Shown: piece after piece, positions 7,941 to 53,722 of the stretch
How positions within the stretch are numbered: the first letter of the stretch is position 1
Layout: every line of letters starts with the position of its first letter
Source: Candidatus Multivoradales bacterium
Lineage (GTDB): Bacteria > Acidobacteriota > Thermoanaerobaculia > Multivoradales > JAHEKO01
Length of the DNA stretch: 64,000 nucleotides
Direction: 5' to 3'
NCBI GenBank assembly: GCA_965223155.1
Contig: CBDCVR010000014.1
Span: 256,001-320,000, forward strand
The notes under the pieces: model-generated
Seen by the model: only the letters and a program-made list of their open reading frames with translations
Database searches by the model: none
Told to the model about the DNA's origin: nothing
Program-made: the position numbers and the translations under genes

Positions 7941-9884
7941 ATGAGCGATCGATCCAACAAGCCCACCGCAACCCGACCCGGTCCACCGAGCGGCTACCGT
8001 GCCTTCGTACGATCCTCGATGGTGATCGCGGCTACGGTGGCGCTTTCGACGCTGGCCTGCACCAACGCCGGCAACGGCAGCGGAAACGGCGACCAGGGCG
8101 CCGGCGCCACCGCCGCGGCTACCGGCGGCAGCACTTCCGCAAGCCTGGCGGGGGGCACCGGCAAGGGACCGTGGTTCCGAACCCCTAACGGTTTCGCGGT
8201 CGAAGCCAACGGCCACATCGTAGTCGCCGATCTCGGCCGGCGAGCGATCCTCCGGGTCGATCCCGCCAACGGCAACCGGTCGATCGTCTCGGACGAGACC
8301 ACCGGCAGCGGACCCGAGCTCCAATCCCCGCTCAATATCGCGGTCGAAGCCAGCGGCACGCTTGCGGTTACCGACTCCGGCTTGCAGGCGGTCGTTCGAA
8401 TCGACCCTGCCTCGGGCGACCGAACCGTCGTCTCGGACTCCAGCCAGGGCAGCGGCCCCGCCTTTCAGTCGCCTCTCAACATCGACGTCGAGCCAAGCGG
8501 CTCACTCGTGGTGACCGACTTCGGACTCCTGTCGGTGGTTCGGGTGGATTCCTCGAGCGGCGATCGCACGATCGTGTCCGGCCCTCACCAGGGCTCGGGC
8601 GTCAAGTTCTCGGCTCCGCGCGGCATCGCCGTCGACGCCAGCGGCGGCTTGGCGGTCGCCGACTTCGGCCTGGACGCCGTCCTGCGAGTGGATCCCACCA
8701 GCGGCGACCGCACCGTCGTCTCTGACGCCTCGACCGGAAGTGGTCCGGCCCTTGACGGTCCCGCCGGCATCGACGTCACCTCCGGCGGCGACTTCCTGGT
8801 CTCGGATCTCGCCACCAAGGCCCTGATCCAAGTGGACGCGAGCACCGGCGATCGCACCACGATCTCGGACGCCAACCACGGCAGTGGGTCCGACTTCCTC
8901 TCGCCGATGGGTGTCGCGACCGCCGCCTCGATGCCTCTGGTCCTGGATTCGGGACTCGAGGCCATCGTCCAGGTAGACCCCAGCAGCGGCAACCGCGCCA
9001 TCGTGTCCCAGAGTCACGAGACCGGCGATCCGGCCTTCGCCATTCCCGTTGGGATCGCGGTCGAAGGCAGTGGGGATCTGGTGGTCGCGGACGCCGGGCT
9101 CAACGCCGTCATTCGCGTCGACGCGGCCACCGGCGATCGTTCGGTGGTCTCCGACGCCAGCCGCGGCTCGGGCTTGCCGCTCGAGGGCCCCGACGGCATC
9201 GCGGTCGAAGCCAGCGGCAGCTTGATCCTCGTCGAGGGCGGCGCCGGCCAGGTGGCGGTTGTCCGTATCGATCCCCAAAGCGGTGACCGCACGGTCGTCT
9301 CCGACTCCTCGACCGGTTCGGGCCCGGATCTCGAGACTCCCTCGGGCATCGCGGTCGACGGCAGCGGCCAGCTCCTCGTCGTCGACGACGGCCTGGACGC
9401 AGTCGTCCAAGTGGATCCCGCGACCGGCGACCGTTCGATCGTCTCCGACCAGAGCGTCGGCACCGGACCCGACTTCGAGTCCCCGCCGAATCTTGACGTC
9501 GAGTCGGCCGGATCGCTCGTGGTCACGGACTCCGCCCGTATCGCGGTGTTCCGCGTGGACGTCGCCTCCGGGGATCGATCGATCCTGTCCGATTCTTCGA
9601 CGGGGTCGGGACCCGATTTTCAGTCGCCCCTGGATCTCGCCATCGAGAGCTCGGGAGGTATCTTGCTGACCGACTTCGGGCGCAAAGCCGTGCTACGGGT
9701 AGACCCCACCAGCGGCGACCGGTCGATCGTGTCCGACGCAAGCACGGGCAGCGGCCCTAACTTCCAGGCCCCGCTGGATCTAGCCGTCGAGGCGAGCGGC
9801 GACATCGTGGTCGTCGACGCCGGACTCGAGGCTGTCGTCCGAGTCGAGGCGTCGACGGGAGATCGGGCGATCCTCAGTCAGTAG
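7941..9884 (+). CDS. Lipoprotein with 12 NHL-like repeats (two 6-bladed beta-propellers)
   Basis: Lipobox LSTLAC; 12 repeats of ~48 aa (SGPxFxSPxGIAVEASGxLxVxDxGLxAVxRVDPxSGDRxIVSD). Confidence 0.85.
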   Translation: MSDRSNKPTATRPGPPSGYRAFVRSSMVIAATVALSTLACTNAGNGSGNGDQGAGATAAATGGSTSASLAGGTGKGPWFRTPNGFAVEANGHIVVADLGRRAILRVDPANGNRSIVSDETTGSGPELQSPLNIAVEASGTLAVTDSGLQAVVRIDPASGDRTVVSDSSQGSGPAFQSPLNIDVEPSGSLVVTDFGLLSVVRVDSSSGDRTIVSGPHQGSGVKFSAPRGIAVDASGGLAVADFGLDAVLRVDPTSGDRTVVSDASTGSGPALDGPAGIDVTSGGDFLVSDLATKALIQVDASTGDRTTISDANHGSGSDFLSPMGVATAASMPLVLDSGLEAIVQVDPSSGNRAIVSQSHETGDPAFAIPVGIAVEGSGDLVVADAGLNAVIRVDAATGDRSVVSDASRGSGLPLEGPDGIAVEASGSLILVEGGAGQVAVVRIDPQSGDRTVVSDSSTGSGPDLETPSGIAVDGSGQLLVVDDGLDAVVQVDPATGDRSIVSDQSVGTGPDFESPPNLDVESAGSLVVTDSARIAVFRVDVASGDRSILSDSSTGSGPDFQSPLDLAIESSGGILLTDFGRKAVLRVDPTSGDRSIVSDASTGSGPNFQAPLDLAVEASGDIVVVDAGLEAVVRVEASTGDRAILSQ

Positions 9885-9890: not shown

Positions 9891-10265
<375 letters not shown>

Positions 10266-10414: not shown

Positions 10415-12130
10415 ATGAGACGGGTGGTGGTGATTGGCGCCAGCATAGCAGGCGGCATGGCCGCCTCCTATCTCAAGGTCCGCTCGCCCGATCTGGACGT
10501 CGTCGTCTTAGACCGCGACCGGCGCGAGGCGCCCATCGTCGGCGAGTCCCTGACCGAGCTGAGCACGCGCACCCTGCACGAGATCGGCCTTGCCTCGCAT
10601 TTGGAACGGCACCAGTTGCCCAAGTATGGGCTCACCTTTCACTTCCGGGAGTCGGCCGGCGCAGCTCATGGCCGCCGCTACGCCACCCACGAGGCGCCCC
10701 GGTTGCCGCCGATGCCGTCGAATCAGATCAACCGATTCACCTTCGATCGCCGGTTGCGCCGGCGCGCGCGCGAGTTGGGCGTGCGGATCCTGGAAGGCAC
10801 CGCCCGGAACGCCCGCTTCGGCCCTGACGGAGAGCACCGGATTCGGTACGTGGACGGCGACGGGGGCCAGGCCGAGCTCGAAGCCTCCTGGGTTCTCGAC
10901 GCCAGCGGCCGCAACCGCTTTCTGGCCCGAAAGCTCGGCCTGCGCCGGGAGTCGCGGCTTCAGCGCTCGGTCTTCTGGTTCCGTCTCCAGGGATTCGAGC
11001 GAAGCGCTCTCGACGAGCTGCCCACGGTCAAGCCGCCCCAGCACTGCTTCGACTCGTACTACGCAACGCACCACTTCTTCGGCAGGCACAACTGGGTCTG
11101 GGCGATTCCGCTGCACCCGGGACCCGACGGCGAGGAGCTCATGAGCGTCGGCATCGTCTACCGCCCGGACCTCTTCGCGGGCGAGATCTCCTCGGTCCAG
11201 GACTTTCTCGATCAGGTCGATCAGGAGCATCCTGCGCTGGCGCGACTGGTCCGAAGCGGCCGGGTTCTGGACACCAACGCCTACCGCAACTACCTCTACG
11301 AATGCAGCCGGTGCTACGGCGGCGAGGGCTGGTTCCTGGTGGGCGACGCCGGCGACGCGGTCGACCCCCTGTACAGCACCGGGCTGGCCCTGACCGCGCT
11401 GCAAATCCGGCAAGTGGCGGCGGTGATCGAGCGGGCTCTCTCCGGACGACCCGTGGCCGGACTCTGCCGGGACCTCGAGGCCGCCTACAAGGCGGTCCGG
11501 GACGCTCTACAGAACGAGATCTCGTCGCTCTACGAAGTCATGGATGATCCCTATCAGAGCCACCTGCGCATGCACCTGTCGTCGGCCGTCTATTTCTTCT
11601 TCTTGCTGCCGTTCTGGCTCACCGGCTATGCCACCTCCGGCCCGGAGGCTCGCTTGACGGCCCGCCTGCTCGAGCGCGAGCAGGCGCCGTTCGAATCGCT
11701 GCGGACGCTGCTGGCCAAGGCCTCCGCGCGCCTGGGTCCCCAGCCGGCCGAGGCAATTCGCAACCGGTACCAGGCAACCGTCAATTGGGATCTCTCCGGC
11801 CCTTGCGAGCGCGAGCTCCCCCGCTACCTGGCGCGGTTGTGCCGGCTTTGCGCCGGCGTCCGGTTCGAGGCCCTGCGGGCTTCGGGATGGCACCGCTGGT
11901 GGCACCATGTACCGCTGGCCGTCGCCGACCTGGCCAAGGCCGCGGTTCTGGCCGGTCCCCTGCGGCGCGTCCGTCTCGGCCGGCTCGCCAGCCTGGCCGG
12001 CCCGTCTCGAGAGCCAAGCCCTTCCGCCCACCCTTCTCCCCGGCTCCAGCCCGCCCGAGCGATCGGAGCCAGAGGAGCCAGAGGAGCCAGCGGAGCCGCC
12101 GGAACCGCCGGAACCGCCGGAGCCGAGTGA
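10415..12130 (+). CDS. Flavin-dependent halogenase-family protein
   Basis: Rossmann-like VVIGASIAGG, GESL, DASGR, the WVWAIP (WxWxIP) halogenase motif and GDAGDAVDPLYSTG. Confidence 0.8.
   Translation: MRRVVVIGASIAGGMAASYLKVRSPDLDVVVLDRDRREAPIVGESLTELSTRTLHEIGLASHLERHQLPKYGLTFHFRESAGAAHGRRYATHEAPRLPPMPSNQINRFTFDRRLRRRARELGVRILEGTARNARFGPDGEHRIRYVDGDGGQAELEASWVLDASGRNRFLARKLGLRRESRLQRSVFWFRLQGFERSALDELPTVKPPQHCFDSYYATHHFFGRHNWVWAIPLHPGPDGEELMSVGIVYRPDLFAGEISSVQDFLDQVDQEHPALARLVRSGRVLDTNAYRNYLYECSRCYGGEGWFLVGDAGDAVDPLYSTGLALTALQIRQVAAVIERALSGRPVAGLCRDLEAAYKAVRDALQNEISSLYEVMDDPYQSHLRMHLSSAVYFFFLLPFWLTGYATSGPEARLTARLLEREQAPFESLRTLLAKASARLGPQPAEAIRNRYQATVNWDLSGPCERELPRYLARLCRLCAGVRFEALRASGWHRWWHHVPLAVADLAKAAVLAGPLRRVRLGRLASLAGPSREPSPSAHPSPRLQPARAIGARGARGASGAAGTAGTAGAE
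12066..12127 (+). repeat. Degenerate 9-nt tandem repeat in the halogenase 3' end
   Basis: GAGCCAGAG / GAACCGCCG-type units, about seven copies, encoding GARGARGASGAAGTAGTAG. Confidence 0.7.
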
Positions 12131-12201
12131 AGTGCGTCGAGCTCGGCATCCGTCGCTGGGGCCGCGGGCAGAGTCCACCACGGGCGGATCCTGGTAGAGC
12201 G

Positions 12202-13068
12202 ATGTCGCTGGTCGGCACCATCCTGCGAGAGACCTTCGCTCGACGGCCGCTGGACCGCGTTCCAGAGCCCGAGCTGGTGACGACCGCGCCCGACGCGGTC
12301 TCGGCCTTCGCCGCGGCCGGGCGGGCGGGCGGCGTCCTGTCCGGTGTCTACGCCTTCCTGGCCGAACAGGCCGGACGCTTGATCCGGCCCGGCGACCGCG
12401 TCCTGGATCTGGGTTGTGGTCCGGCCACGCTCTTGAGCGACATCGCCGGCCGCCATCCGCGGGCCGCCTTCGTCGGCGTCGATCTGTCCTCGGAGATGAT
12501 CGAACGGGGCCGGCGCGAGCTCCGCACCCACGGCCGAACCAACGTCGAGCTCCGAGTCGAGGACATGACACGGCTGGACTCGACCGCCTCCGGCTCGATC
12601 GACGTGGTGCTTTCCTCGATGGCCTTCCACCATCTCGCCGGCGACGCCGATCTGCGCCGCTGCCTGGCCGCGGCCGCGCGCGTCATGAAACCGGCGGCCG
12701 AGATGTTCGTCGCCGACTTCGGCCGGCTCGGAAGCGCGCGCTCGATCGACTATTTCGTGCGGCGGGCCATCCCCGCCGGTGAGGATGAGCTCGCCCGCGA
12801 CTACCGCGCGTCACTCCACGCGGCGTTCACCCCGGCCGAGCTCTGGAGCTCCGTGCCCGCCGCGCTCCGGCCTCGCCTGGCTGTCTACTCGACCGCGGTA
12901 AGTCCGATGATGGTCGCCTTGCGAACCCGGGGCACCGGCGGCCCGACGCCGGCTCGAACGGCAAACGGCGACCGGAACGAAAAGCGGTCCGGGAACCTTC
13001 CTTGGAGGCGCCGGCTCGATTACTGGCAGCTCCGGCTCTTCTTCCGCATGGGAGGGCTGCCTGGCTGA
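12202..13068 (+). CDS. Class I SAM-dependent methyltransferase
   Basis: VLDLGCGP, GVDLSSEM and SMAFHHL motifs; the stop overlaps the next ATG (TGATG). Confidence 0.9.
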   Translation: MSLVGTILRETFARRPLDRVPEPELVTTAPDAVSAFAAAGRAGGVLSGVYAFLAEQAGRLIRPGDRVLDLGCGPATLLSDIAGRHPRAAFVGVDLSSEMIERGRRELRTHGRTNVELRVEDMTRLDSTASGSIDVVLSSMAFHHLAGDADLRRCLAAAARVMKPAAEMFVADFGRLGSARSIDYFVRRAIPAGEDELARDYRASLHAAFTPAELWSSVPAALRPRLAVYSTAVSPMMVALRTRGTGGPTPARTANGDRNEKRSGNLPWRRRLDYWQLRLFFRMGGLPG

Positions 13069-14672
13069 TGGCTCGTTCGCGGGAGACGGGACCTGGCCGA
13101 GACGCGTGGCGGCACGCCATCCGGTGCTGGCGCGAGGCTCTCGGCGCGCACCGCCTCGACCGGAACACCGAGCGCTACAACCGAGACACCGGCTCTCGAA
13201 CCGGCACCATCCCCGTGGCTCTGCGCCCGGCCAAGATCGCGCACGTCCAGGCCATCCTCGAGATCGCCAATCGGTTCTGCGTCCCCGTCTATCCGGTGAG
13301 CACCGGGCACAATTGGGGCTACGGCACCTCGGTGCCGGTGCGCTCGCCAAGCGCCATCATGGACCTCGGGGGCATGCGTCGCATCCTGAGCTTTGACACC
13401 GCTTTGGGGGCGGTCACCCTCGAACCGGGGGTAACGCAGCAGGGACTTCGCCGCTACCTCGATCGGGAGGCCCTGCCCTTCCTGGTCCCGGTGACCGGGG
13501 CCGGTCCCGATTGCAGCGTCCTCGCCAACGCTTTCGAGCGGGGCTTCGGCATCACGCCCGTCGTGGATCACTTCGCGGCCGTCCTCTCCCTGCGCGCCGT
13601 GCTTCCGGACGGCTCCCTCTACGAGTCGCCGTTCCGCAGTTTTCCCGGGGCGGGCACGGCCGCAGCCTATAAGTGGGGCACGGGTCCCCACCTGGACGCA
13701 CTCTTCTCGCAGTCCGGTCTCGGCATCGTGGTGGACGCCACCATCGCACTCAGGCCGAAGTCCGATTGCCGGGCCGCGCTTCTCTTTACGCTGAGCTCGG
13801 GCGACCGGTTGGAAGCCGCCAGCTCGCGTGTCGGGGACCTGCTCGAAGCCGCCGGCGGCCACGTCGCGGCGGTCAACCTGATGAGCCGCGGCCGCCTTCT
13901 GGCGATGGCCCGGGGCGCCGGACGCCTTCGCGGCTCGCAAACCGAGGCCGAATCCCCGGATCCGCCGGGTGGCGCCTGGTTCGGACTCGGCTCGATCTAC
14001 TGCCCGCGTACCGCGCTCCGCACCACCCGGCGCCTCATCCGGCGCCACCTAGGCGGGTGCGCTTCAAACCTCCGCATCCTGACTCCGGGCCGCGCCGCGA
14101 TGCTGGCGCGGCTTGGAGAGTTGGGCGGACGGCTCGGCCTTTCCCGGTCGAGCGCGTCCACTCGACAGATCCGGGCCGTCTTCGACATTCTCGACGGCCG
14201 GCCCACGCGGTTCGCCCTGCCGCTCGCCTATGCCGGCTCGGGCGCCGCCGCCGACCGCACCGATCTCGACCCCGCCCGGGACGGCTGCGGCCTTTCCTGG
14301 TACTCCCCGATCGTGCCGTCCCGCCCCGGCAACGTGACGCGGTTCGTGCAGCTGGTGGCGGCCTGCTGCTCGTCCTTCGGCTTCGCGGCCCCCATCACCT
14401 TGACCACGCTCTCGCCCCGGACATTCGCCGCCACCGTGCCGATTCTGTTCGATCGCGAGGATCCCGCTGCCGAGCAGCGGGCGCGGGACTGCCTCGAAGC
14501 GCTATGCGACCGGGGCCTAGCCGAAGGCTTCGTACCGTACCGGCTCGGTCCGCAGCTCATGAATCGCTTCCTGCCTGGGAGCGGGGCGGGACCGCTTGCC
14601 GCCCGCCTCAAGGAGCTGTTGGACCCCAACGGCATCCTGGCGCCGGGCCGATACGCCAGGGCCGAGCCGTAG
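13068..14672 (+). CDS. VAO/PCMH-family FAD-binding oxidoreductase (FeeG-like)
   Basis: PVSTGHNWGYG, LEPGVTQ, GPHLDALFSQSGLGIV and C-terminal LDPNGILAPGRY, as in p-cresol methylhydroxylase-type flavoproteins. Confidence 0.85.
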   Translation: MARSRETGPGRDAWRHAIRCWREALGAHRLDRNTERYNRDTGSRTGTIPVALRPAKIAHVQAILEIANRFCVPVYPVSTGHNWGYGTSVPVRSPSAIMDLGGMRRILSFDTALGAVTLEPGVTQQGLRRYLDREALPFLVPVTGAGPDCSVLANAFERGFGITPVVDHFAAVLSLRAVLPDGSLYESPFRSFPGAGTAAAYKWGTGPHLDALFSQSGLGIVVDATIALRPKSDCRAALLFTLSSGDRLEAASSRVGDLLEAAGGHVAAVNLMSRGRLLAMARGAGRLRGSQTEAESPDPPGGAWFGLGSIYCPRTALRTTRRLIRRHLGGCASNLRILTPGRAAMLARLGELGGRLGLSRSSASTRQIRAVFDILDGRPTRFALPLAYAGSGAAADRTDLDPARDGCGLSWYSPIVPSRPGNVTRFVQLVAACCSSFGFAAPITLTTLSPRTFAATVPILFDREDPAAEQRARDCLEALCDRGLAEGFVPYRLGPQLMNRFLPGSGAGPLAARLKELLDPNGILAPGRYARAEP

Positions 14673-14768
14673 GCCCGGCCGCGCCGCGCCGGCCCAGGTC
14701 CTCCGCCTTCTCCCGCGCCCCTCTCGGAAGACCGGTAGACCCGCCGCGCCAAGGCGGGATTGGCAAAT

Positions 14769-14785
14769 TAGCAGTACCGGAGAAG
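14769..14785 (+). promoter_or_regulatory. Cluster motif copy (TAGCAGTACCGGAGAAG) with -10-like TTCAAT 20 nt downstream
   Basis: Consensus match upstream of lipoprotein B. Confidence 0.65.
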
Positions 14786-14862
14786 ACGTTTTCCGGGCCC
14801 TGGGCTTCAATGACAGACACCCTCAAAGCTCTGGCTTCATTACGGACTCAAGGAGACGAACA

Positions 14863-15822
14863 ATGAAAGGCTACCTACGCGCTGCTTCGATCTGTTTGCT
14901 GGCAACGGTCTTCGCGACCGGGTGCCAAAGTCTCGATTCAGGATCCACGGTGGAGAGCCGCCCGAGCGCGAGCGAGGCGGTCGGCACCCTCGCCACCATC
15001 TTGAACGTGGAGCTCGAAGCCTGTGAATCTCGGATCCCGGCCGTCGCCCAAGAGAGCGTCACGACGTTTTCGGAGGATCGGATCAAGAAGACGCTCCACG
15101 GCGTTTGGAAGGGCCGGGTCTCCGGCGAGTACGACGAAAAGTTTCTTGCCGAGGACGGGTACCTGAACGTCGACTACTACATGGTGGTGGATACCGAACG
15201 CTCCGAGGTTCTCGTGATCGAACAGTTCTCGGACGAACGTTCAGCACCCGAGGCTTCCGCCGAGCTCCGCGCTGCCGGCAAGCTGCCGGTCTGGTCGTAT
15301 CTGATGTGCGGCAAGGAACAGTACAAGCCAGCCCACCCGCGGCAGATCCACGAGTTCCAGAAGGTTTCGAACGACACCGACGACGCCCGCGGCCTGCTGG
15401 GGAACTCGACCGGGCTCCGCATCGCCGATGCCGACTTCAAGGAACGCGGCCTGGTGATCTCCGACGCCTGGGAACAGCTCGTCGCCGGTCAGTACTTCGA
15501 CAACCGGCGCTTCCCGGCCTACGCCGGGGGCCTGTTCAAGCCCTTCGAGATCCGAAACAAGGTCAACGACCGGGGCGTCGGCGTCTTCGAGATGCGCTTC
15601 GACACCGAGCTGCGCGGCGGCGGCGGCACCGCCGCCGAGTTCGAGTCGGGCGTCCCCATCCACGGCTGGGAGACGGGCCAGTTCGTCGGCGTCTCGACCG
15701 GATCAGGAGACTTCTTGATCGCCTCGGCCAGCAATGGGGCCGAGTGGAAGAAGGTCTCCACCTCCGGCGGCATCATCGACGTGTTCTTCGAGAAAGTCGT
15801 CATCGGCCCGCTGGCCGAGTGA
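14863..15822 (+). CDS. Lipoprotein of unknown function (paralog B)
   Basis: AAGGAG RBS, ATG at 14863, lipobox VFATGC; shares motifs with 5854-6864. Confidence 0.8.
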   Translation: MKGYLRAASICLLATVFATGCQSLDSGSTVESRPSASEAVGTLATILNVELEACESRIPAVAQESVTTFSEDRIKKTLHGVWKGRVSGEYDEKFLAEDGYLNVDYYMVVDTERSEVLVIEQFSDERSAPEASAELRAAGKLPVWSYLMCGKEQYKPAHPRQIHEFQKVSNDTDDARGLLGNSTGLRIADADFKERGLVISDAWEQLVAGQYFDNRRFPAYAGGLFKPFEIRNKVNDRGVGVFEMRFDTELRGGGGTAAEFESGVPIHGWETGQFVGVSTGSGDFLIASASNGAEWKKVSTSGGIIDVFFEKVVIGPLAE

Positions 15823-18269
15823 CCCGGACGCCGCCCGCCGGCCTTCTCCCGAACTCCCGACTCCGGCCCCACGGGCGGCTCATCCGCTCGTGGGGCGGCG
15901 TCGTAACGCTCGCGCTCGCGCTGCCGGCCGGAGCGCTTCTCGGCATCGCCTCGCCTCGCGCGGGACTCGCTACCGAGTCCCCACTCGACCTTCGCCGCGG
16001 TCGGGAGCTCTTCGAGACCACGATCCGGCCTCTCTTCTCGCGCCACTGCATCGAGTGTCACGGTAGCGCCAAGGCTCGCTCCGGTCTTGACCTCTCGACG
16101 CGCGAGACCTTGCTCACCGGCGGCGACCATGGTCCTTCCGTGGTGCCCGGAGCGCCGGATGCGAGCCCGGTTCTCGAGTACCTTCGCCACCGGGCCGAGC
16201 CGTTCATGCCGCCCGAGCGGCCACCTCTTCCCGAAACGGCGATCGAGGCCCTGGCCGACTGGATCCGGCTGGGCGCGCCCTACGGCAGCCGCCTGGGAAC
16301 GGCGGGGCCGTCTCCGGCAGGGTCCGGTGATCCCCTCGCCGGTCTGCCCGACGCCGAGCTCCCCGCGGGCTCTCTTGCCTCCGATGCCTCGGCTGTCTCC
16401 GTTGTCTCTGATGGTTCCAAGACCTCGGATACCCCCTGGGCCTTCGCGCCGCTTGCCAACCATCCCGACGGCACCACCCTTGACGGCCTGGTGGCGACCG
16501 GCTGGGCCGAGCGCGGCGCGACGCCGGCGCCCGAAGTCCCGAAGGCCGTGCTCGCCCGGCGCCTCCACTTCGACACCATTGGCCTGCCTCCGGCCCCAGA
16601 TGACCTGGCCGCCTTTCTCGCCGACGACTCCCCGGGAGCCTATGAGGCACTCGTGGACCGTCTCCTGGCCAGCCCCCACTTCGGAGAGCGATGGGCGCGC
16701 CACTGGCTGGACGTCGCGCGTTTCGCCGAGAGCCACGGCTTCGAGCACGACTACGACCGGGCCGGGGCGTTTCACTACCGCGACTTCGTCATTCGAGCCT
16801 TCAACGCCGACATGCCTTTCGACCGTTTCGTCCGCTGGCAGCTCGCCGGCGACGAGCTCGCACCCGAAAATTCTTTGGCTCTCGTGGCCACCGGCTTCTT
16901 AGCCGCCGGCGTCTATCCCACCCAGCTCACCCTGGCCGACGCCGAGAGGATCCGCTACGACGCGATGGACGACATGCTGGCGACGACCGGTGTCGCTCTG
17001 CTCGCCACGACCATCGGCTGCGCCAGGTGCCATGACCACAAGTACGACCCGATCTCGGCCGACGAGTACTACGCGATGTTGAGCGCCTTTACGACCACGA
17101 TCCGGAGCGAGATCGCGGTGGACCTGCCGGCAGGGCCGGTGCCCGCCGCGTCCGTCGCCGCCGATCCCGGGGATCTCGACGGTGCGAGTCCGGGGGCTCC
17201 CGGCACGCGGGCTCCGACCAGGATCCTGATCGCCAGCGAAGGGCCGCATCTGCGGCCCCTGCCGCTGCACAAAAGCAACCGCTCGATCCCGGACTTCTAT
17301 CCCGCGACCTACCGGCTCCAGAACGGAGATCCCGCAAGCAAGCTGGGCGAGGCCCGCCTGGGCTTCCTCAGCGGCTTGACTCGTAGCCCGAACCTCGGAC
17401 CGTGGCGCGCTCCCTCCGCCGACGCCAGGACCTCAGGGCGTCGGGCTGCCCTCGCCCGCTGGATCACGGACACCGAAGCGGGAGCCGGACATCTGCTGGC
17501 CCGGGTCATCGTCAACCGCGTCTGGCAGCACTACTTTGGGCGCGGCATCGTGGCCACGCCTAACGATTTCGGCGCCCAGGGGGCTCGGCCCACCCACCCC
17601 GAGCTGCTCGACTTCCTGGCCCGGCAGCTCATCGACTCCGGCTGGCGGCTGAAGCCGATCCACAAGCTGGTCCTGATGAGCCGGCTCTACCGCCTGGGGC
17701 CGCATCCCGACCGACCGGGTCCGGGCTCGAGCTCCGAGCCGGAAGCCGGCCGCGAGGCCGAATCGGACCCCGACCACGCGCATCTGTGCCACCGTCACCC
17801 CCGGCGGCTGGAGGCCGAAGCCATCCGCGACGCGGCCCTGGCGGTTTCGGGGCTCCTCGATCGGAGCCTGTACGGCCCGGGGACCCTCGACGAGGCCGGG
17901 CGGCGGCGGAGTCTCTACTTCACCGTTAAACGCAGCCGGCTCGTTCCCAGCATGCAGATCCTGGGCTGGCCGGACACCTTGACCAGCCTCGGACACAGGA
18001 CCGTGACCACCAGCCCGAGCCAAGCTCTGCTGATGTTGAACCATCCGGCCTTCCGCGGCATGGCCCGGGGGTTCGCCGAGCGGATCGCAGCCAGTGCCGA
18101 CGTCATCGGCACCGCCTTCCTGACCGCCTTCTCGCGCCCGCCCTCGGCGCGCGAGCGGGCCTTGGCCGAGGACTTTCTTGGAGGCGCCGGCGGGGACGAG
18201 ATCCCGGATGCCCTGGTCGACTTCTGCGCCGCCCTCCTGGCCTCGAACGAGTTCGTCTATGTCGACTAG
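15819..18269 (+). CDS. Planctomycete cytochrome c / DUF1549 / DUF1553 protein
   Basis: CIECHG, FGERWARHWLDVARFAES, CARCHDHKYDP, ARVIVNRVWQHYFGRG, PTHPELLDFLA and LLASNEFVYVD; GTG overlaps the upstream stop (start approximate). Confidence 0.9.
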   Translation: MTRTPPAGLLPNSRLRPHGRLIRSWGGVVTLALALPAGALLGIASPRAGLATESPLDLRRGRELFETTIRPLFSRHCIECHGSAKARSGLDLSTRETLLTGGDHGPSVVPGAPDASPVLEYLRHRAEPFMPPERPPLPETAIEALADWIRLGAPYGSRLGTAGPSPAGSGDPLAGLPDAELPAGSLASDASAVSVVSDGSKTSDTPWAFAPLANHPDGTTLDGLVATGWAERGATPAPEVPKAVLARRLHFDTIGLPPAPDDLAAFLADDSPGAYEALVDRLLASPHFGERWARHWLDVARFAESHGFEHDYDRAGAFHYRDFVIRAFNADMPFDRFVRWQLAGDELAPENSLALVATGFLAAGVYPTQLTLADAERIRYDAMDDMLATTGVALLATTIGCARCHDHKYDPISADEYYAMLSAFTTTIRSEIAVDLPAGPVPAASVAADPGDLDGASPGAPGTRAPTRILIASEGPHLRPLPLHKSNRSIPDFYPATYRLQNGDPASKLGEARLGFLSGLTRSPNLGPWRAPSADARTSGRRAALARWITDTEAGAGHLLARVIVNRVWQHYFGRGIVATPNDFGAQGARPTHPELLDFLARQLIDSGWRLKPIHKLVLMSRLYRLGPHPDRPGPGSSSEPEAGREAESDPDHAHLCHRHPRRLEAEAIRDAALAVSGLLDRSLYGPGTLDEAGRRRSLYFTVKRSRLVPSMQILGWPDTLTSLGHRTVTTSPSQALLMLNHPAFRGMARGFAERIAASADVIGTAFLTAFSRPPSARERALAEDFLGGAGGDEIPDALVDFCAALLASNEFVYVD

Positions 18270-19779
18270 GCAGGATCCCGCCGGCGAGCGGCACGAGCAC
18301 TGCGGCCGGATCGCGCCGACCTTCACCCGCCGGGAGGCCCTACGCCTGGCGGGCGGCGGCATGGGCATGCTGGCGCTCAACACCCTCCTTGCCCAATCCG
18401 GCCTGGCCACCCCCGGCCTGGCCACCCCCGGCTCGGCCACACCCGGCTCGGCCGTCGCGGCCCGGCGCCCGGCCGGGTCGCGGAATTGGTCCGCGCGCGC
18501 GGATTCGGTGATTTGGCTCTTCATGAACGGCGGACCGAGCCATCTCGACACCTTCGACTACAAGCCTGCTCTAGCCCGGGCCACCGGTCAGACGCTCGCC
18601 GGCTTCGACAACGCCACCGCCTTCTTCGACCAGCAGGTAGGGCCGCTCCTCGGATCACCCTTCCCTTTCCGGCAGCACGGTGAGAGCGGCGCCTGGGTCT
18701 CGTCCCTCTTCCCCCATCTCGCCCGGCAAGTGGACAAGATCGCGTTTCTCAAGTCCTTTCGAACCAGGACGAACAACCACAGTCCCGCCATGTTCATGGC
18801 CAACACCGGCGTGCCGCGCATGGGCAGACCGTGCGTCGGAAGCTGGGTGACGTACGGTCTGGGCACCGAGAATCGAAACCTGCCGGCATTCGTGGTCATG
18901 AGCGACCCGCTGGACCGGGGCCTGCCCAAAGGCCACGCCGCGAACTGGAGCAACGGCTTCCTGCCCGGCGCCTACCAGGGGGCCTGGCTCCAGCCGAAGG
19001 GGGCGCCGATCGCCAATCTCGATCGCCCGGCCGGCCAAAGCGACCGGCGCCAGCGGCGTCAGCTCGACCTCTTGCAGAAGCTCAACGCCCAGCACCATCG
19101 CCGGCGGCCCTTCGAACCGGACCTGGCGGCGCGGATCGAGAGCTTCGAGCTCGCCTACCGGATGCAGAGCGAAGCGCCCGACTGCTTCGAGCTCGACGGC
19201 GAGCCCGACTCCATCCACGAGCTCTACGGCACTCGGGACGAGCGCTGCGCCCACTTCGGCCGCCAGTGCCTGCTGGCGCGGCGCTTGGTGGAACGGGGCG
19301 TTCGCTTCGTCCAGATCTACTCCGGCGGCACCGCCAACTCGCGCAGCTGGGACGGTCACAACGACATCCGCAAGAACCACTCCCAGTTCGCCGGCGAGAC
19401 CGATCGTCCGATCGCCGGCCTGCTCGCGGATCTGGATCAGCGGGGACTGCTGGATCGAACCCTGGTGGTCTGGGGCGGCGAGTTCGGCCGCCTGCCGGTC
19501 TCCCAGCTCTCCGACGGAGAGCCCACCGGTCGAGACCACAACCCCCACGCCGGCTGCTACTGGATGGCCGGTGGCGGCATCCGCGGCGGAGTCTCGTACG
19601 GCGAAACCGATGAGCTCGGCCACAAGGCGGTTACCGATCCGATCGAGATCCACGACATCCACGCCACGCTCCTGCATCTGCTGGGCTTGGATCACGAACG
19701 CCTGACCTATCTCCACAACGGCCGGCGCTATCGCCTGACCGACGTCGCCGGCCGGGTGCTCCGCGAGGTCTTGGCCTGA
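18259..19779 (+). CDS. DUF1501 protein with Tat signal
   Basis: TRREAL twin-arginine motif; LFMNGGPSHLDTFDYKP, WGGEFGRLP, GRDHNP and RLTDVAG. Canonical partner of DUF1553 genes. Confidence 0.9.
   Translation: MSTRQDPAGERHEHCGRIAPTFTRREALRLAGGGMGMLALNTLLAQSGLATPGLATPGSATPGSAVAARRPAGSRNWSARADSVIWLFMNGGPSHLDTFDYKPALARATGQTLAGFDNATAFFDQQVGPLLGSPFPFRQHGESGAWVSSLFPHLARQVDKIAFLKSFRTRTNNHSPAMFMANTGVPRMGRPCVGSWVTYGLGTENRNLPAFVVMSDPLDRGLPKGHAANWSNGFLPGAYQGAWLQPKGAPIANLDRPAGQSDRRQRRQLDLLQKLNAQHHRRRPFEPDLAARIESFELAYRMQSEAPDCFELDGEPDSIHELYGTRDERCAHFGRQCLLARRLVERGVRFVQIYSGGTANSRSWDGHNDIRKNHSQFAGETDRPIAGLLADLDQRGLLDRTLVVWGGEFGRLPVSQLSDGEPTGRDHNPHAGCYWMAGGGIRGGVSYGETDELGHKAVTDPIEIHDIHATLLHLLGLDHERLTYLHNGRRYRLTDVAGRVLREVLA
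18398..18453 (+). repeat. 15-nt tandem repeat after the Tat signal
   Basis: CCGGCCTGGCCACCC-type unit, nearly four copies, encoding GLATPGLATPGSATPGSA. Confidence 0.75.
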
Positions 19780-21266
19780 CCCCGAGCGGAGCGAGCGCCA
19801 GGGCGCAGGGCGTCACTGGAAGCTCCGAACGCTCCGGGGCGGACGCCAGCGGTCACGACAGACCCGACGGAGGCCGCCCTCAGCCCGGCCGGTCGCGAGC
19901 CGACGTCTTCGACACCCTCGACGCCACCGGCCTGGCCCGAGGCATCGCCCGCGGAGAGTTCTCGAGCTCCGAGCTCGTGGAACACTACCTCGGCCGGATT
20001 CGACAGCGAAACGGCGACCTCCAAGCGTTCGTCAAGGTCTTCGAGCGGCGTGCCCAACGCAGCGCCGGCCGCAAGGACCGGAAGATCCGGGGCAACCCGA
20101 CTCTGGACGCGTTCCACGGCGTCCCGATCGGCGTCAAAGACCTCAACCTGGTCCGCGCCTCCGTGGCCCGATTCGGCTCGCGGGCGGTACCGCCGATTCC
20201 ATCTCCCATCGACGACCGTACGGTCTCCCGGCTGCGCGCGGCCGGCTTCGTCCTGTTGGGGAAGACCGCCACCAGCGAGCTCGGTGCCATGCCTGTGGTC
20301 GAGCCCCGCACTCATCCTCCGACCCGCAATCCCCACGACCTCGACCGGTCGGCGGGCGGCTCCAGCGGGGGATCCGCCACGGCGGTGGCCGCGGGCCTGC
20401 TACCCATCGCCCACGGCAACGACGGCGGCGGCTCGATCCGCATCCCCGCCGCGTTCTGCGGCGTCTTCGGCTTCAAGCCTTCCCGCGGCCTCCTGGCCAA
20501 CCCCTACGGTCTGAACCCGACCCGATGCCTGTACACCTGCGGCGCCATCGCCCGTTCCGCCCGCGACCTACGCAACCTCACCGGCGCCATGCTGCCGGCG
20601 GGCCAGGAGCCCCTGGCGCGGAACGGATCCCGCCACCGCCGGCTGGTCATCCATCAAGTCGTGACCAGCGCCGTCGCCGCCACCACGAGCGAGGCGGTGG
20701 CCGCGGTCGAAGCCATCGGCCGGGTTCTGGCAGACCTCGGCCACGCGGTCCGAGCCCAGCCCCGGTTCGAAGGAGCCTTCGAGGACTTCCTTCCCCTCTA
20801 CCAGCACCTCCTGGCCGGGTTCAGACTGCTCCCGAAGCGCCGCCTGGAGCCAACGACCGCCTGGCTCTGTCGGGAGGGCCGCCGGATCCCCGAGACTGAG
20901 GCGAGCCGCCGGCACAGCGCCCTCGAACGAGACATCGACACCTGGCTGGGCGCGGCCGACATCGTGGTGAGTCCGACCGTCGGCTCGCCGCCACCCGCCA
21001 TCGGCGCCTGGAGCGCTCTAGCGCCCGGCGAAGCCTTCTTCGAAGCCGCCCGGCTCGGCGCCTACACCGCCCTCTACAACGTCGCCGGCATGCCGGCGGC
21101 CACGATTCCCGCCGGCTTCGATCGTTCCGGCTTGCCCCTCGGAGTCCAGGTCGCCGGCCGCCGGGGCACCGATGCCCTCGTCCTGGATCTGGCCGAGACC
21201 CTGGCCGACGCCGGCGCGATCCCGCTGCTGGCGCCGCTTGCCAGGGTCGCCGGCGAACAGACTTAG
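19776..21266 (+). CDS. Amidase-signature family enzyme
   Basis: [26 protein letters not shown] and [10 protein letters not shown]. The conserved N-terminus ([20 protein letters not shown]) lies upstream of the first GTG at 19977, so the start is placed tentatively at CTG 19776. Confidence 0.85.
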
Positions 21267-21280
21267 CAGTCTGGGAGAAG
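21264..21280 (+). promoter_or_regulatory. Cluster motif copy (TAGCAGTCTGGGAGAAG) with -10-like CAGAGT 21 nt downstream
   Basis: Consensus match overlapping the amidase stop codon, upstream of the FeeM-like gene. Confidence 0.65.
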
Positions 21281-21321
21281 CCGCCGGACGCGCGCCCCCG
21301 GCAGAGTTTCCGGGGACGCGT

Positions 21322-22155
21322 ATGACGATCCGTGGCTCGACCTCTATCAAGACACCTCAACGGCCGACTCTGGCCGAGGCCGTTTGCCAGGGATTTCAGA
21401 CCCTGCCGGAAGGCTGGTCGGTAGGAAGCGCCGACACGCGGCCGAGGCTCGAGCGGGCCTGCCGGCTTCTCTACCGCGAGTACCTCGAGCGCGGGTACTG
21501 CGCGCCCAGTCCCTGGCGGCTCCACTACTCGCCGCATATGTTCGGTGAGCGGTCCAGGACGTTCGTCCAAACCGCCTCGGGCACGGTCCAGGGCACCCTC
21601 AGCATCTTCCCGGACGACGCCCAGGGCCTGCCTCTCGAATCCCTCTACCGGCGGGAGATCGACGACCTGCGCGGGCGCGGCCTGGGCTTGGCCGAGATCG
21701 GTCTCCTGGCGTGCCGCGGCGGACCGGGCCAGGCGCCCGACGCTGGAGCCCGGCTGCAAAGCCTCTTCCTGCTCTTCAAGATCGCGGTCAGCTACGGCCG
21801 CTCGCTCGGGATCTCCCATCTCCTGATCGCCATCCACCCCCGGCACCGCCGGCTCTACGAGTCCCTGGGCTTTCTCAAGATGAGCAAGGTGCGCAGCTAT
21901 CCGGCGGTCCGCGGCCACCCGGCGCTGCCCATGCTGCAAGACCTGGGAAAGGAGACCGAGGAAGCCGACGGCGCCGTACGCCGCTTCTTTCTCGGCAACC
22001 CCGTTGCCCCCGAGCGCTTTCGGCGCTCTCTTGACGGTGGCGACGATCCGTTTGCCGAGCTCTTTGGAGACACCTTCCATGCCTGGCGCCGGCGCAGGCG
22101 CGCACCGGTCGAACGGCACGCGCCTGCGGTCGCTTTGCAACCCGGCACGCTCTAG
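21322..22155 (+). CDS. FeeM-like N-acyl amino acid synthase (GNAT fold)
   Basis: RLLYREYLERGY, GTLSIFPDDAQGLPLESLYRREIDDLR, LAEIGLLA, IAIHPRHRRLYESLGF and YPAVRGHPA match the FeeM/NAS pattern. Confidence 0.8.
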   Translation: MTIRGSTSIKTPQRPTLAEAVCQGFQTLPEGWSVGSADTRPRLERACRLLYREYLERGYCAPSPWRLHYSPHMFGERSRTFVQTASGTVQGTLSIFPDDAQGLPLESLYRREIDDLRGRGLGLAEIGLLACRGGPGQAPDAGARLQSLFLLFKIAVSYGRSLGISHLLIAIHPRHRRLYESLGFLKMSKVRSYPAVRGHPALPMLQDLGKETEEADGAVRRFFLGNPVAPERFRRSLDGGDDPFAELFGDTFHAWRRRRRAPVERHAPAVALQPGTL

Positions 22156-22164: not shown

Positions 22165-23544
22165 ATGCGCAGATTCGTCCTTCTCATGCTGCTCGTCGCC
22201 TCGGTGGCCTCGGCCGCCACCCACCCGGGGCTGCGCAACCTCATGTCCAAGGCGTACTCGCCGTCGGTGATCGACGCCCACCTCTTCGACAACCTCTGGC
22301 GGTCGTGGGAGGCGCCGGCCCGGGAGGCGGCGCGCCAGGCGGCGCCCGCGCAACGCAGAGCCATGACCCTGGATCGATACGGCCTGCTGGAGGCCCCCTA
22401 CCCCAACGGAGGCGCGCCGCTCGGATTCGTGGTCAAGGACGACGGCACCTGGGCCATGACCTGCCTCATCTGCCACGCCGGTTCGGTCGAGGGCCGCACT
22501 GTGCTGGGACTGCCCAACAACGCCCTCGACTTCAGCTCGATCTACGAAGACATCGGCCAGACGGTAACGATGCTGCACGGCGATGAGCCCGGCGCTCCCG
22601 ACTTCCCGCAGGGACTCCTGACCTTCGCCAGCCCCGAGAATCCGGGTACCGTGCACTTTCCGGAGGGACTCTTGAGCGTCTCCCGCGGCACTGTCAATTC
22701 CTTCACCTTTAGCGTCTACTTCCTGTCGCTGCGCGACCAAGACCTCAACCTGCGCGACGCCCCGCTGGACCTGCCGCGACTCAATCACTACCTCGACGCG
22801 CCGCCTCTGTGGCACACCGCCAAGCGGGCTTCGTTCTACTCGGACGCTTTCGCCGAGAAGACGGTCCGGCCGCTCATGCAGTTCTCGCTCGATCCGTCCT
22901 TCGGGCCCGAAGTCTTCAAGGCCTGGGAGGCCGACTACGTCGAGATCTTCGATTGGCTGCACACCCTCGAAGCGCCGCGCTACTCCGGACCGGTCGATGC
23001 GGCCGCGGCCTCGGCCGGAGCCGGGATCTACTCGGAGCATTGCTCCAAGTGCCACGGAATCCCGGGTCCAGAAGGCGACTACGAGAACAAGGTCGTTCCG
23101 GTGGGCAAGGTGCGTACCGACCGAGCCCGCCTGGACGGCCTGGCGCCCGAGTTCCGGCGCCACCTCGGCGAATCCTGGCTCGGCGCCTACGGAGAAACCC
23201 GAATCGACACCGCGCCCGAGGGCTACACACCGCCGCCGCTCGACGGCATCTGGGCCACGGCTCCCTATTTCCACAACGGCTCGGTCCCCACCCTGTTCCA
23301 CGTGCTCTTCCCAGCCGAGCGCCCGGTGGTCTGGAGGGTCACCGACTACGCCGCCTACGATCATCGACGGATGGGGCTCACGATCGAGGAGTACGACCGC
23401 CTGCCCGCGACCCAGGGGCGGTCCGACGCTCGCGCCTTCTACGACACGAATCGGTTCTCGATGAGCGCCGGCGGACATCCTTTCGCCGACGAGCTGGACC
23501 GGAGCCAGCGCCTGGATCTACTCGAGTATCTGAAGACGCTCTAG
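22165..23544 (+). CDS. Exported diheme c-type cytochrome (RoxA / CcP-MauG-like superfamily)
   Basis: Signal peptide, two CxxCH motifs (CLICH, CSKCH), PPLDGIWATAPYFHNGSVPTL and C-terminal GH...LLEYLKTL. Confidence 0.8.
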   Translation: MRRFVLLMLLVASVASAATHPGLRNLMSKAYSPSVIDAHLFDNLWRSWEAPAREAARQAAPAQRRAMTLDRYGLLEAPYPNGGAPLGFVVKDDGTWAMTCLICHAGSVEGRTVLGLPNNALDFSSIYEDIGQTVTMLHGDEPGAPDFPQGLLTFASPENPGTVHFPEGLLSVSRGTVNSFTFSVYFLSLRDQDLNLRDAPLDLPRLNHYLDAPPLWHTAKRASFYSDAFAEKTVRPLMQFSLDPSFGPEVFKAWEADYVEIFDWLHTLEAPRYSGPVDAAAASAGAGIYSEHCSKCHGIPGPEGDYENKVVPVGKVRTDRARLDGLAPEFRRHLGESWLGAYGETRIDTAPEGYTPPPLDGIWATAPYFHNGSVPTLFHVLFPAERPVVWRVTDYAAYDHRRMGLTIEEYDRLPATQGRSDARAFYDTNRFSMSAGGHPFADELDRSQRLDLLEYLKTL

Positions 23545-23571: not shown

Positions 23572-24114
23572 TCAGCGCGAGCTCCCGGCAGGCTCGGGCG
23601 CCTCGGCCGGCTTGATCGAGGCATGGGCATGGACGATCCGCCAGGGCCCCTCGGGTCGAGCCCGGGAGAAGACCAGAGTCTCGGCGGTCTCGACCACTGA
23701 CGCCTCTTCGCCCACCCGGGTTTCGAAGTCTCCGCGGTAGCGGGCGAAGGCCATGGTCCCTTCCGGCGCCACGAAGACCTCGACGTCCCGCAGACGCCAC
23801 GACTCGACGGTCATGTCCTCGCCGGCGAGAAGCGCCACGTAGTCGTCCTTCCCGAATTCGACGGCGCCATCGGTGTAGAGAACGAACTCGCGGGCCATGA
23901 GGTCGCCGACGCCATCCCAGTCCCCGCGCTCGGCCAGAACAAAAAAGCTCTCGACCGCCCGTTGGACCGCGCTTCGCGCCTCCCCGAGCGCCGCGTCGAG
24001 CTGGGGCTTGGCGTCCGCGCCTGAAGCCGGGCCGCCGGACGCGGCCAGCACGACGAGCATCGAGACGACCCCGACGATCCGTGCCGGTATCGTGACTTGC
24101 CTAGACTGCTGCAT
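23572..24114 (-). CDS. Exported NTF2-fold (DUF4440/SnoaL-like) protein
   Basis: N-terminal hydrophobic signal, ERGDWDGVGDLM and C-terminal WRIVHAHAS; last gene of the pksE operon. Confidence 0.75.
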   Translation of the reverse strand: MQQSRQVTIPARIVGVVSMLVVLAASGGPASGADAKPQLDAALGEARSAVQRAVESFFVLAERGDWDGVGDLMAREFVLYTDGAVEFGKDDYVALLAGEDMTVESWRLRDVEVFVAPEGTMAFARYRGDFETRVGEEASVVETAETLVFSRARPEGPWRIVHAHASIKPAEAPEPAGSSR

Positions 24115-26001: not shown

Positions 26002-26057
26002 GCGGCCTCAGGAAGGGATCTCGGGGAGCGCCGCGGCTTGCCAGGAGACGGCCCGGG

Positions 26058-35719: not shown

Positions 35720-35750
35720 CGCGACGGCTCCTTCGGATTCCGCTCGAAGC

Positions 35751-45155: not shown

Positions 45156-45188
45156 GCCACAAGCCGGCTAGAGGCTCGCGCTGCCGGC

Positions 45189-45545: not shown

Positions 45546-45781
45546 GACTGGGTGGGAGGGCGGACGGGAGGGACTCCCTGTCACCGGTTTCCTGCGCTGG
45601 CATCGGCTACACCATCGCTCACAAGCACCAGCTTTGGTGGTCGCCCCGAGATCCGGAGCGGGAATTCGGGGACTGGCTCGAGAGGGGGCCAGGGAGGACG
45701 TGCCTGTCCCCGAATTCCCGGCCGCAGCTCACGGCCGATAGGCATTGCGGGCCGGCCGCAGCGCGATCGCAAATCCGAGAA

Positions 45782-53688: not shown

Positions 53689-53722
53689 AACGTAATCCGC
53701 TCGCTGGTTTCGCGACCCTCGG

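Follow-up and report, generated by a model that had tools for sequence, protein, structure and literature searches.

Do an iterative polyketide synthase (PKS) and a set of genes for N-acyl amino acid synthesis that lie close together on one bacterial contig belong to a single pathway? The question is raised by a 64,000-nt stretch of DNA from Candidatus Multivoradales bacterium (contig CBDCVR010000014.1, positions 256,001-320,000, forward strand; this whole stretch is hereafter the window), which encodes a PKSE-type synthase and a homologue of the N-acyl amino acid synthase FeeM. We propose that the region from ~7.9 to 36.2 kb is one cluster, in which the PKSE polyene synthase would supply the acyl chain for an N-acyl aromatic amino acid pathway of the Fee/Cnd kind, a reading to which we assign a probability of roughly 0.45. 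This proposal draws on the identities of the genes, their operon-like layout, the conservation of 13 of them, PKSE included, in a second genome, the co-phylogeny of the PKSE and the failure to find any other carrier protein in either cluster.

Gene content and layout of the cluster

Genes in the window were called from frame-specific G+C and profile searches (Pfam, NCBIfam). The genes assigned to the cluster are given below by position in the window and strand; identities refer to G041, a Thermoanaerobaculia metagenome-assembled genome, to L022, the 11.7-kb contig of G041 that carries its FeeM gene, and to L023, a short metagenome contig. MT denotes the methyltransferase, VAO the VAO/PCMH flavoprotein and PSCyt the PSCyt1/DUF1549/DUF1553 cytochrome.

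7941-9884, + strand: NHL-repeat protein (Pfam NHL, 93.2 bits; N-terminal hydrophobic, signal-like segment; 53% identity to the G041 counterpart by tblastn)
9891-10265, - strand: glyoxalase/bleomycin-resistance (VOC) protein (Pfam Glyoxalase, 39 bits; identity 60% to L022, 72% to L023)
10415-12130, + strand: flavin-dependent halogenase-like enzyme, 571 aa (Trp_halogenase, 54.7 bits; FAD_binding_3, 37.4 bits)
12202-13068, + strand: class I S-adenosylmethionine-dependent methyltransferase (MT), 288 aa (Methyltransf_25, 73.4 bits; 57% identity to the G041 orthologue)
13068-14672, + strand: VAO/PCMH flavoprotein (VAO) (FAD_binding_4, 66.5 bits; 52% identity to the G041 orthologue)
14863-15822, + strand: orphan lipoprotein, 319 aa (lipobox-like signal; AGGAG ribosome-binding site upstream; 56% identity in G041)
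15819-18269, + strand: PSCyt1 (CxxCH)-DUF1549-DUF1553 cytochrome (PSCyt) (PSCyt2, 249.8 bits; PSD1, 234.5 bits; PSCyt1, 52.9 bits; 56% identity to L022)
18259-19779, + strand: DUF1501 protein of the sulfatase-like superfamily (DUF1501, 503.3 bits; twin-arginine (RR) signal; 71% identity to L022)
19977-21266, + strand: amidase-signature amidase (Pfam Amidase, 254.9 bits; GGSSGG motif)
21322-22155, + strand: FeeM-family synthase homologue, 277 aa (PF21926, 109.3 bits)
22165-23544, + strand: RoxA-like di-haem cytochrome c of the peroxidase/dioxygenase superfamily (RoxA-like_Cyt-c, 75.9 bits; signal peptide; two CxxCH; 60% identity to L022)
25558-26007, - strand: hot-dog thioesterase of the enediyne E10/CalE7 type (4HBT_2, 42.1 bits)
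26058-26987, - strand: AraC-family regulator (HTH_18, 83.8 bits; adjoins PKSE in G041 too, 55% identity)
26947-32967, - strand: PKSE-type iterative type I PKS (KS-AT-ACP-KR-DH)
33737-36208, - strand: FG-GAP/UnbV_ASPIC protein (UnbV_ASPIC, 31.4 bits against a cut-off of 23.4)

A sequence-only reading of positions 10415 to 22155 had named five of these genes (a halogenase with WxWxIP, a methyltransferase, a VAO/PCMH flavoprotein, an amidase and FeeM), and profile and PDB matches place all five where that reading had them, on the + strand; its account of the interval was incomplete, since it had missed the lipoprotein, PSCyt and DUF1501 genes inside and the RoxA-like gene directly after FeeM. The nine genes of the + strand between 10415 and 23544 have three start/stop overlaps and no gap longer than 197 nt. 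The MT start, fixed by alignment with the G041 orthologue, is ATG 12202, and the MT stop codon overlaps the VAO ATG; PSCyt probably starts at GTG 15819, overlapping the lipoprotein stop codon; and the RoxA-like gene begins 9 nt past the end of FeeM. FeeM, VAO, MT, PSCyt, DUF1501 and the RoxA-like gene are each present in single copy in the 4.0-Mb source genome, G000. The G+C content of the window is 63-72%, and that of the cluster (69.7% vs 66.6% for the genome) lies inside the range of local variation.

A second copy of the cluster

A locus search queried with a four-sequence alignment scanned one genome per species and gave 147 pattern matches with one confirmed relative, L022; a further scan gave 271 pattern matches, of which two were confirmed, both of them short metagenome contigs, L023 and L024. 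On L022, PSCyt (cut at the contig start), DUF1501, amidase, FeeM, RoxA-like, halogenase and glyoxalase genes follow one another co-directionally, with 49-71% identity to the window. The same genome, G041, has two PKSE genes, on contigs C15 (loci L028 and L029) and C200 (L027). Downstream of the PKSE on C15 lie the AraC gene, an additional methyltransferase gene, the MT, VAO, lipoprotein and NHL genes and the first ~120 codons of PSCyt, which is truncated where the contig stops. The 20 nt that close C15 recur exactly as the opening 20 nt of L022, within the PSCyt gene and in frame, and the match to the PSCyt protein of the window carries on past the joint (residues 288-337, then 332-1054). Thus, 13 of the window-cluster genes (PKSE and 12 others) stand together in G041 as an unbroken co-directional string; their proteins are 47-71% identical to those of the window, and the gene order differs: PKSE-AraC-MT2-MT-VAO-lipoprotein-NHL-PSCyt-DUF1501-amidase-FeeM-RoxA-Hal-Glyox, all on a single strand.

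This string contains neither a UnbV_ASPIC gene nor a thioesterase of the E10/CalE7 type, the only such thioesterase of G041 being located with the other PKSE on C200. The two short contigs carry parts of the set, L024 amidase-FeeM-halogenase and L023 FeeM, glyoxalase and halogenase. The additional class I methyltransferase of G041 (L029:5985-6821), between AraC and the shared MT, has no counterpart in the window.

The FeeM-family synthase and the amidase

The FeeM-like protein matches PF21926 over profile positions 2-155 of 158 (cut-off 27 bits) and is the one match to this family in G000; the solved FeeM structure 2g0b is its only PDB match (E 1.1e-13). Its Glu125 aligns with the glutamate in the ...LAEV... 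segment of FeeM and is invariant in all 12 aligned homologues. This glutamate is reported to be the catalytic base of FeeM. At 277 aa, vs 198 aa for the solved FeeM chain, the protein has additional N- and C-terminal segments. The enzyme is predicted to move an ACP-bound acyl chain (ACP, acyl carrier protein) onto an amino acid. Close homologues are few: an exhaustive search gave 2321 representatives at E <= 0.001 and only 15 at E <= 1e-30. Many FeeM-family proteins have ~400 aa and carry the FeeM domain C-terminally, and one of them (P0005) has an N-terminal PilZ domain, a fusion that hints at N-acyl amino acid synthases controlled by c-di-GMP.

The amidase gene immediately precedes FeeM in the window, in L022 and in L024. 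The Pfam match of its product spans profile positions 4-445 of 445, with GGSSGG at residue 127, and no NCBIfam equivalog cut-off is reached (best 255 vs 498).

The halogenase and the flavoprotein

The halogenase-like enzyme has a partial match to Trp_halogenase (profile positions 152-381; cut-off 21 bits). Halogenases make up nine of its top ten PDB matches, which are led by 8zop (77 bits), followed by PltA, Bmp2-type, ChlB4, Mpy16-type, CndH (3e1t), the chondrochloren halogenase, and CmlS; its nearest solved relatives are thus phenol/pyrrole-type flavin halogenases. WxWxIP together with a conserved lysine downstream of the GES motif are hallmarks of flavin-dependent halogenases. The window protein has WVWAIP at residues 227-232, and WVWAIP or WIWAIP is found in all four orthologues, as are GxSxxG, the lysine in HKYGLTF and GDAGDxVDPLYSTG. 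This lysine, which follows the GES motif, aligns with a lysine of 8zop and is predicted to be catalytic. A hydrophobic extension of ~200 aa forms the C-terminus. The protein scores below the cut-offs of the named NCBIfam equivalogs (CmlS 65.6/900, QhpG 75.1/240, GoxB 59.8/400, LodB 46.2/400). The glyoxalase gene adjoins the halogenase gene in the window, L022 and L023, and because of this adjacency the glyoxalase may be a self-resistance or ring-cleaving protein.

The PDB matches of the flavoprotein are to 9fge (185 bits), the 8s7n series (165 bits), PCMH 1dii (153.5 bits), eugenol oxidase (122-128 bits) and VAO (111 bits), with D-lactate dehydrogenase types scoring at most 39 bits. By these matches the protein falls within the 4-phenol-oxidising VAO/PCMH subgroup. 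Its Tyr-Arg pair (PYR), to which we presume a phenolate-binding role, aligns with the YR of 9fge. The protein has no signal peptide. In the accessible part of PMC11350588, FeeG and CndG are assigned to the same subgroup, which bears out the sequence-only reading of a FeeG-like oxidase; the window flavoprotein is accordingly a candidate FeeG/CndG-like oxidative decarboxylase by its subgroup.

The exported proteins

Five products of the cluster are exported proteins: the lipoprotein, the NHL-repeat protein, PSCyt, the DUF1501 protein and the RoxA-like cytochrome. The RoxA-like protein scores 123.3 bits against NCBIfam NF040606 (cut-off 150), and the lipoprotein has no Pfam or NCBIfam match and a best score of 0.80, below the useful range, in an Atlas search. 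Pairs of PSCyt/DUF1549/DUF1553 and DUF1501 genes are greatly expanded in Planctomycetes. The pair at 15819-19779, by comparison, is the single copy in the 4.0 Mb of G000; it lies inside the biosynthetic cluster and is kept there in G041 (56% and 71% identity). Given that both genes are single copy in G000, their domains do not support a lineage signal, and a Planctomycete origin suggested by them was set aside. A search for literature treating DUF1549, DUF1553 and DUF1501 together found almost nothing: a single paper mentioned two of these three domains.

The PKSE cassette and the carrier proteins

The PKSE is one protein with the domain order KS-AT-ACP-KR-DH (KS, residues 50-466; AT, 685-905; PP-binding, ~1007-1054; KR, 1275-1454; DH, 1535-1797) and a length in accord with the ~1900-2000 aa of such synthases. 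Its AT region matches DynE8 (168.5 bits). The last 227 residues match no Pfam family at E <= 1, so that Pfam recognises no phosphopantetheinyl transferase domain there; the C-terminal domains of this kind in PKSEs are divergent. The PDB matches of the adjoining thioesterase are CalE7 (153.1 bits), the ACP-polyene thioesterase 4i4j (144.8 bits) and DynE7 (126.2 bits). Near the PKSE is also the UnbV_ASPIC (E4-like) protein, and the neighbouring open reading frames (ORFs) gave no Pfam or NCBIfam match in a search that contained no E3 or E5 family model. One of them, a 132-aa ORF at 33067-33465 (+ strand) between PKSE and UnbV, has no family match, and similar ORFs (48-49%) occupy the same place in three relatives of G000 (G027, G038 and G040); it may be an unrecognised member of the cassette.

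The window contains no free-standing ACP and no acyl-CoA ligase by PF00550 and AMP-binding searches, in agreement with the sequence-only reading, and the PKSE ACP is its sole carrier. PF00550 has three matches in the whole of G000, of which the only one in the window lies inside PKSE at 29806-29946 and was confirmed on an excised 101-residue segment; a housekeeping-type ACP is found elsewhere in the genome (C15:54164-54367 of G000). None of the nine AMP-binding genes of G000 is in the window, the nearest starting 11.6 kb past its end. Similarly, the sole PP-binding match on G041:C15 is the PKSE ACP, and the FeeM contig of G041 has none.

Distribution, PKSE phylogeny and spread

FeeM orthologues were found in none of the 40 relatives of G000 searched (including G005, which was taken as a negative only) and none of 400 genomes of the same phylum (E <= 1e-10), nor in any of 79 relatives of G041 or 400 genomes of its phylum. 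Weaker members of the FeeM family turn up in 15 of 41 genomes at E <= 0.001 (11 of the 41 above the cut-off), never on the PKSE contig of their own genome. The strongest of these other matches (108 bits) is on the 4.9-kb contig G006:C16, where the other ORFs have neither a Pfam match nor a tblastn match to window proteins. Homologues of the flavoprotein are found in none of the 79 G041 relatives at E <= 1e-60; distant ones (35-37% identity) occur in three of the 400 genomes of that phylum, with none of the cluster genes in the surrounding 11-20 kb.

Full-length PKSE orthologues (48-52% identity) are present in six relatives of G000 (G002, G026, G027, G037, G038 and G040). Within 20 kb on either side of these genes, tblastn detects the thioesterase in all six, UnbV in four, an ORF like 33067-33465 in three and AraC in one. 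In a maximum-likelihood tree of nine full-length PKSE sequences, the bipartition of the window and G041:C15 receives an ultrafast bootstrap (UFBoot) of 94 and an SH-aLRT of 98, the PKSE of G002, a member of the same genus as G000, groups with that of G041:C200 (100/100), and an approximately unbiased (AU) test rejects a clade of the window and G002 sequences (p = 0.0003). Thus, the PKSE phylogeny tracks the type of cluster and not the host. Together with the 13-gene string of G041, the {window, G041:C15} bipartition supports the genetic tie between the Fee-like set and PKSE that the sequence-only reading had proposed. FeeM is nearby in two of the nine PKSE loci examined, namely the window and G041:C15 but not the other seven, and these two are the only loci of FeeM orthologues with flanking DNA long enough for such a count.

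Genomes of the same genus share DNA similarity with the window at the AAA-ATPase gene (2.8-4.1 kb) and then again beyond ~37-41 kb; the interval between has only short matches, which fall on the glyoxalase, on the thioesterase and on the 5' end of UnbV. The hosts G000 and G041 appear to be distantly related, because their phylum-sample genomes do not coincide and G041 is outside the 40 nearest relatives of G000. Taken together, the PKSE tree, the absence of FeeM from relatives, the gap in same-genus DNA similarity and the single-copy genes indicate that this is most likely a rare, horizontally acquired cluster, that is, one horizontally spread biosynthetic cluster. Beyond the point at which similarity resumes, the window segment 45171-45660 has numerous DNA matches in genomes of the same genus (74-85% identity; more than 15 of them in G002), and the ORF at 45201-46190 has a weak match to RepA_C (plasmid replication; 35.5 bits); we regard 45171-46190 as a probable remnant of a mobile element close to the border of the accessory region.

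Predicted pathway and alternative explanations

The families of the enzymes involved suggest the following sequence of steps, in which the chemistry, the acyl donor and the amino acid are all predicted. The PKSE would build a conjugated polyene on its own ACP, and the FeeM-family synthase would N-acylate an aromatic amino acid, probably tyrosine, with an ACP-bound acyl chain, most likely this polyene. The flavin-dependent halogenase would halogenate the product or its ACP-bound precursor. The 4-phenol-type flavoprotein would oxidise the p-hydroxybenzyl part via a quinone methide, a course that in FeeG and CndG leads to oxidative decarboxylation to an enamide. The methyltransferase could cap a hydroxyl or carboxyl group, and the amidase-signature enzyme could hydrolyse an amide in release, recycling or self-protection. 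Finally, the five exported proteins might handle, or act on, the lipid outside the cytoplasm.

Offloading of the PKSE polyene by FeeM is plausible, and we regard the PKSE ACP as the most likely donor because it is the only carrier found in both clusters, because the G041 string lacks a thioesterase, which fits FeeM as the release enzyme, and because the FeeM-linked PKSEs form a branch of their own. In a bolder form of the proposal, which we put forward tentatively and consider doubtful as a whole, FeeM would be the chain-release enzyme of the PKSE, replacing or competing with the thioesterase and yielding halogenated, methylated N-polyenoyl-tyrosine-derived amides or enamides, with the PSCyt/DUF1501 pair and the RoxA-like protein processing the lipid outside the cytoplasm.

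Several observations weigh against the proposed coupling. The window retains an E10/CalE7-type thioesterase next to PKSE, so that the usual hydrocarbon route is available. The solved halogenases nearest to that of the window are carrier-protein-dependent, and by analogy its substrate may be ACP-bound rather than an acyl-tyrosine. Close homologues of the flavoprotein are far commoner than FeeM orthologues (644 matches, the best 120 of the 644 all at least 42% identical; among the matches listed, many are named 4-cresol dehydrogenase), so the flavoprotein is not peculiar to FeeM pathways. The MT and VAO genes are not adjacent to FeeM in G041, L023 or L024, and their position beside PKSE-AraC in G041 means that their products may act on the polyketide and not on acyl-tyrosine. 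At the six PKSE loci of relatives, in the same 20-kb flanks, tblastn finds none of the halogenase, MT, VAO, lipoprotein, NHL, PSCyt, DUF1501, amidase, FeeM, RoxA-like and glyoxalase genes, and the second PKSE of G041 (C200) is also without a FeeM module. Furthermore, the linkage is seen in only two genomes, and the co-transfer could be hitch-hiking. As for precedent, the acyl source proposed for N-acyl amino acids is acyl-ACP of primary metabolism, and that of fee a dedicated ACP, none of those described in the accessible text of two papers being a PKS (PMC11959600, PMC12479983).

That precedent leads to the arrangement in which one cluster draws on two acyl sources: FeeM would use acyl-ACP from the fatty acid synthase to give a halogenated, methylated N-acyl-tyrosine or enamide, and the polyene would be released by the thioesterase and either be joined later or form a second product. 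We hold this to be a possible but on balance unlikely account. Primary metabolism is the supply proposed for hyellamide and for N-acyl amino acids generally, fee having its dedicated ACP; the hyellamide locus, as far as its published description was accessible, likewise lacks a dedicated ACP or ligase. Moreover, the CalE7-type thioesterase beside the window PKSE is intact, and the housekeeping-type ACP on C15 of G000 could be the carrier. Left unexplained by such a supply are the G041 string, which has PKSE but no thioesterase, and the separate branch of the FeeM-linked PKSEs. A more radical alternative dispenses with a shared pathway altogether and treats amidase-FeeM-halogenase-glyoxalase, MT-VAO-lipoprotein-PSCyt-DUF1501 and the PKSE cassette as separate functions on one mobile island, for instance periplasmic oxidation of phenols or lipids along with a signalling lipid. 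PCMH-type flavoproteins are classically paired with c-type cytochromes, and two exported cytochromes are in the cluster; the three units also differ in relative order among the window, G041, L023 and L024, and the RepA_C-like remnant is close to one edge of the island. We nevertheless consider this explanation improbable: despite the shuffled order, 13 genes are kept together in two not closely related genomes, uninterrupted and co-directional in G041, the units are single copy in G000, FeeM and VAO are found in none of the 79 G041 relatives, and the flavoprotein has no signal peptide.

Very little credence, in our estimation, is due to the notion that the halogenase-like enzyme is a hydroxylase of the QhpG/LodB/GoxB type that matures a protein-derived quinone cofactor with the di-haem protein, without any small-molecule pathway. 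Its NCBIfam scores are indeed highest for QhpG, then GoxB and LodB, and a di-haem peroxidase-like gene belongs to the string. These scores, however, are far under the cut-offs of 240-400, the solved QhpG (7ctq) reaches 27 bits vs 77 bits for halogenases, WxWxIP is conserved in four of four orthologues, and Pfam scans of the window recognised no candidate gene for a quinoprotein substrate. On the sub-cut-off scores, the PDB ranking and the conserved motif, we rejected the QhpG/LodB-type identity.

Relation to known systems

The fee cluster from soil environmental DNA, as described in the accessible parts of PMC11959600, PMC11350588 and PMC8762209, comprises the N-acyl-tyrosine synthase FeeM, the ACP FeeL and the oxidative decarboxylase FeeG; FeeG and CndG act on N-acyl-tyrosines according to the same three sources. 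In the account given by the part of PMC11350588 that was consulted, hydride abstraction to a quinone methide is followed by decarboxylation of the N-substituted tyrosine, and no structure of either enzyme exists. The locus of the FeeG homologue HyeB lacks an ACP, and its authors propose a supply of acyl-ACP from primary metabolism (PMC11959600, accessible text). The window resembles fee in combining a FeeM-family synthase (PF21926) and a 4-phenol-type VAO/PCMH flavoprotein in one gene string. In contrast to fee, the window has no dedicated ACP or acyl-activating enzyme (the G041 cluster contigs carry only the PKSE ACP, AMP-binding genes having been searched in G000 only), and it adds PKSE, halogenase, methyltransferase, amidase and the five exported proteins.

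Chondrochloren is assembled by a modular PKS/nonribosomal peptide synthetase (NRPS), with tyrosine loaded on an NRPS module. Its pathway (the oxidative decarboxylase CndG, PMC11350588 and PMC11959600, and the halogenase CndH) is similar to the predicted one in applying a phenol/pyrrole-type flavin halogenase and a VAO/PCMH flavoprotein to an N-acylated tyrosine with a polyketide acyl part, whereas the window has a FeeM-type transferase and an iterative PKSE instead of an NRPS, and 3e1t scores only 52.3 bits. The locus follows the logic of fee and chondrochloren, yet the lack of a dedicated ACP or ligase means that it is not a fee cluster, and it is not a modular PKS/NRPS either. NasY-type pathways (stieleriacines, thalassotalic acids and tyrazolones; PMC12479983) employ a nitroreductase-type desaturase and a ThiF-like cyclase, neither of which is in the window, and the accessible text of that paper describes their loci, unlike the window, as having no PKS, halogenase or VAO-type oxidase.

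With the enediyne PKSE cassette, the locus shares the KS-AT-ACP-KR-DH order, an AT matching DynE8, a thioesterase nearest CalE7/SgcE10/DynE7 and a UnbV_ASPIC protein. It differs from that cassette in that no E3/E5-like genes were recognised, the genome does not seem actinomycete-like, and the G041 version lacks thioesterase and UnbV; these differences make an enediyne product unexpected, and the locus is probably not an enediyne cluster. A PNAS 2023 paper on enediynes (PMC9992847), checked for a halogenase acting on the polyene, makes no mention of a halogenase.

PKSE genes are widespread outside actinomycetes, where their products are unknown, and a metagenomic survey, in its accessible part, likewise reports enediyne-type KS lineages outside Actinobacteria without known products (PMC10308959). 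A cluster common to two distantly related bacteria points to a lipid-like natural product of a kind not yet described; the conserved combination of PKSE and N-acyl amino acid genes suggests a new release logic for an iterative PKS, as well as polyenoyl amino-acid lipids of a new class. Furthermore, the occurrence of the PSCyt/DUF1501 pair as a single copy in a defined pathway makes the function of this pair approachable, and if FeeM does release the PKSE chain and the pair does process the lipid, this would be the first functional handle on it.

Other genes of the window

Between the RoxA-like and thioesterase genes, a DUF4440/SnoaL-like gene with a signal peptide (23572-24114, - strand) overlaps an ORF without matches (23897-24802, + strand), which is followed by an ORF at 24803-25222. 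Of the two that overlap, one or both are probably not real genes, and the G041 cluster has no counterpart of any of the three. The whole window gave no matches to Rfam. Toward its far end, at 52192-62202, lies a set resembling respiratory nitrate reductase narGHI (molybdopterin subunit, 58558-62202; Fe-S subunit, 56968-58557; gamma subunit, 55476-56462), with two major facilitator superfamily (MFS) transporters at 52192-55702; the DNA at 52149-55999, where the stretch searched ends, is 89% identical to a contig of G002.

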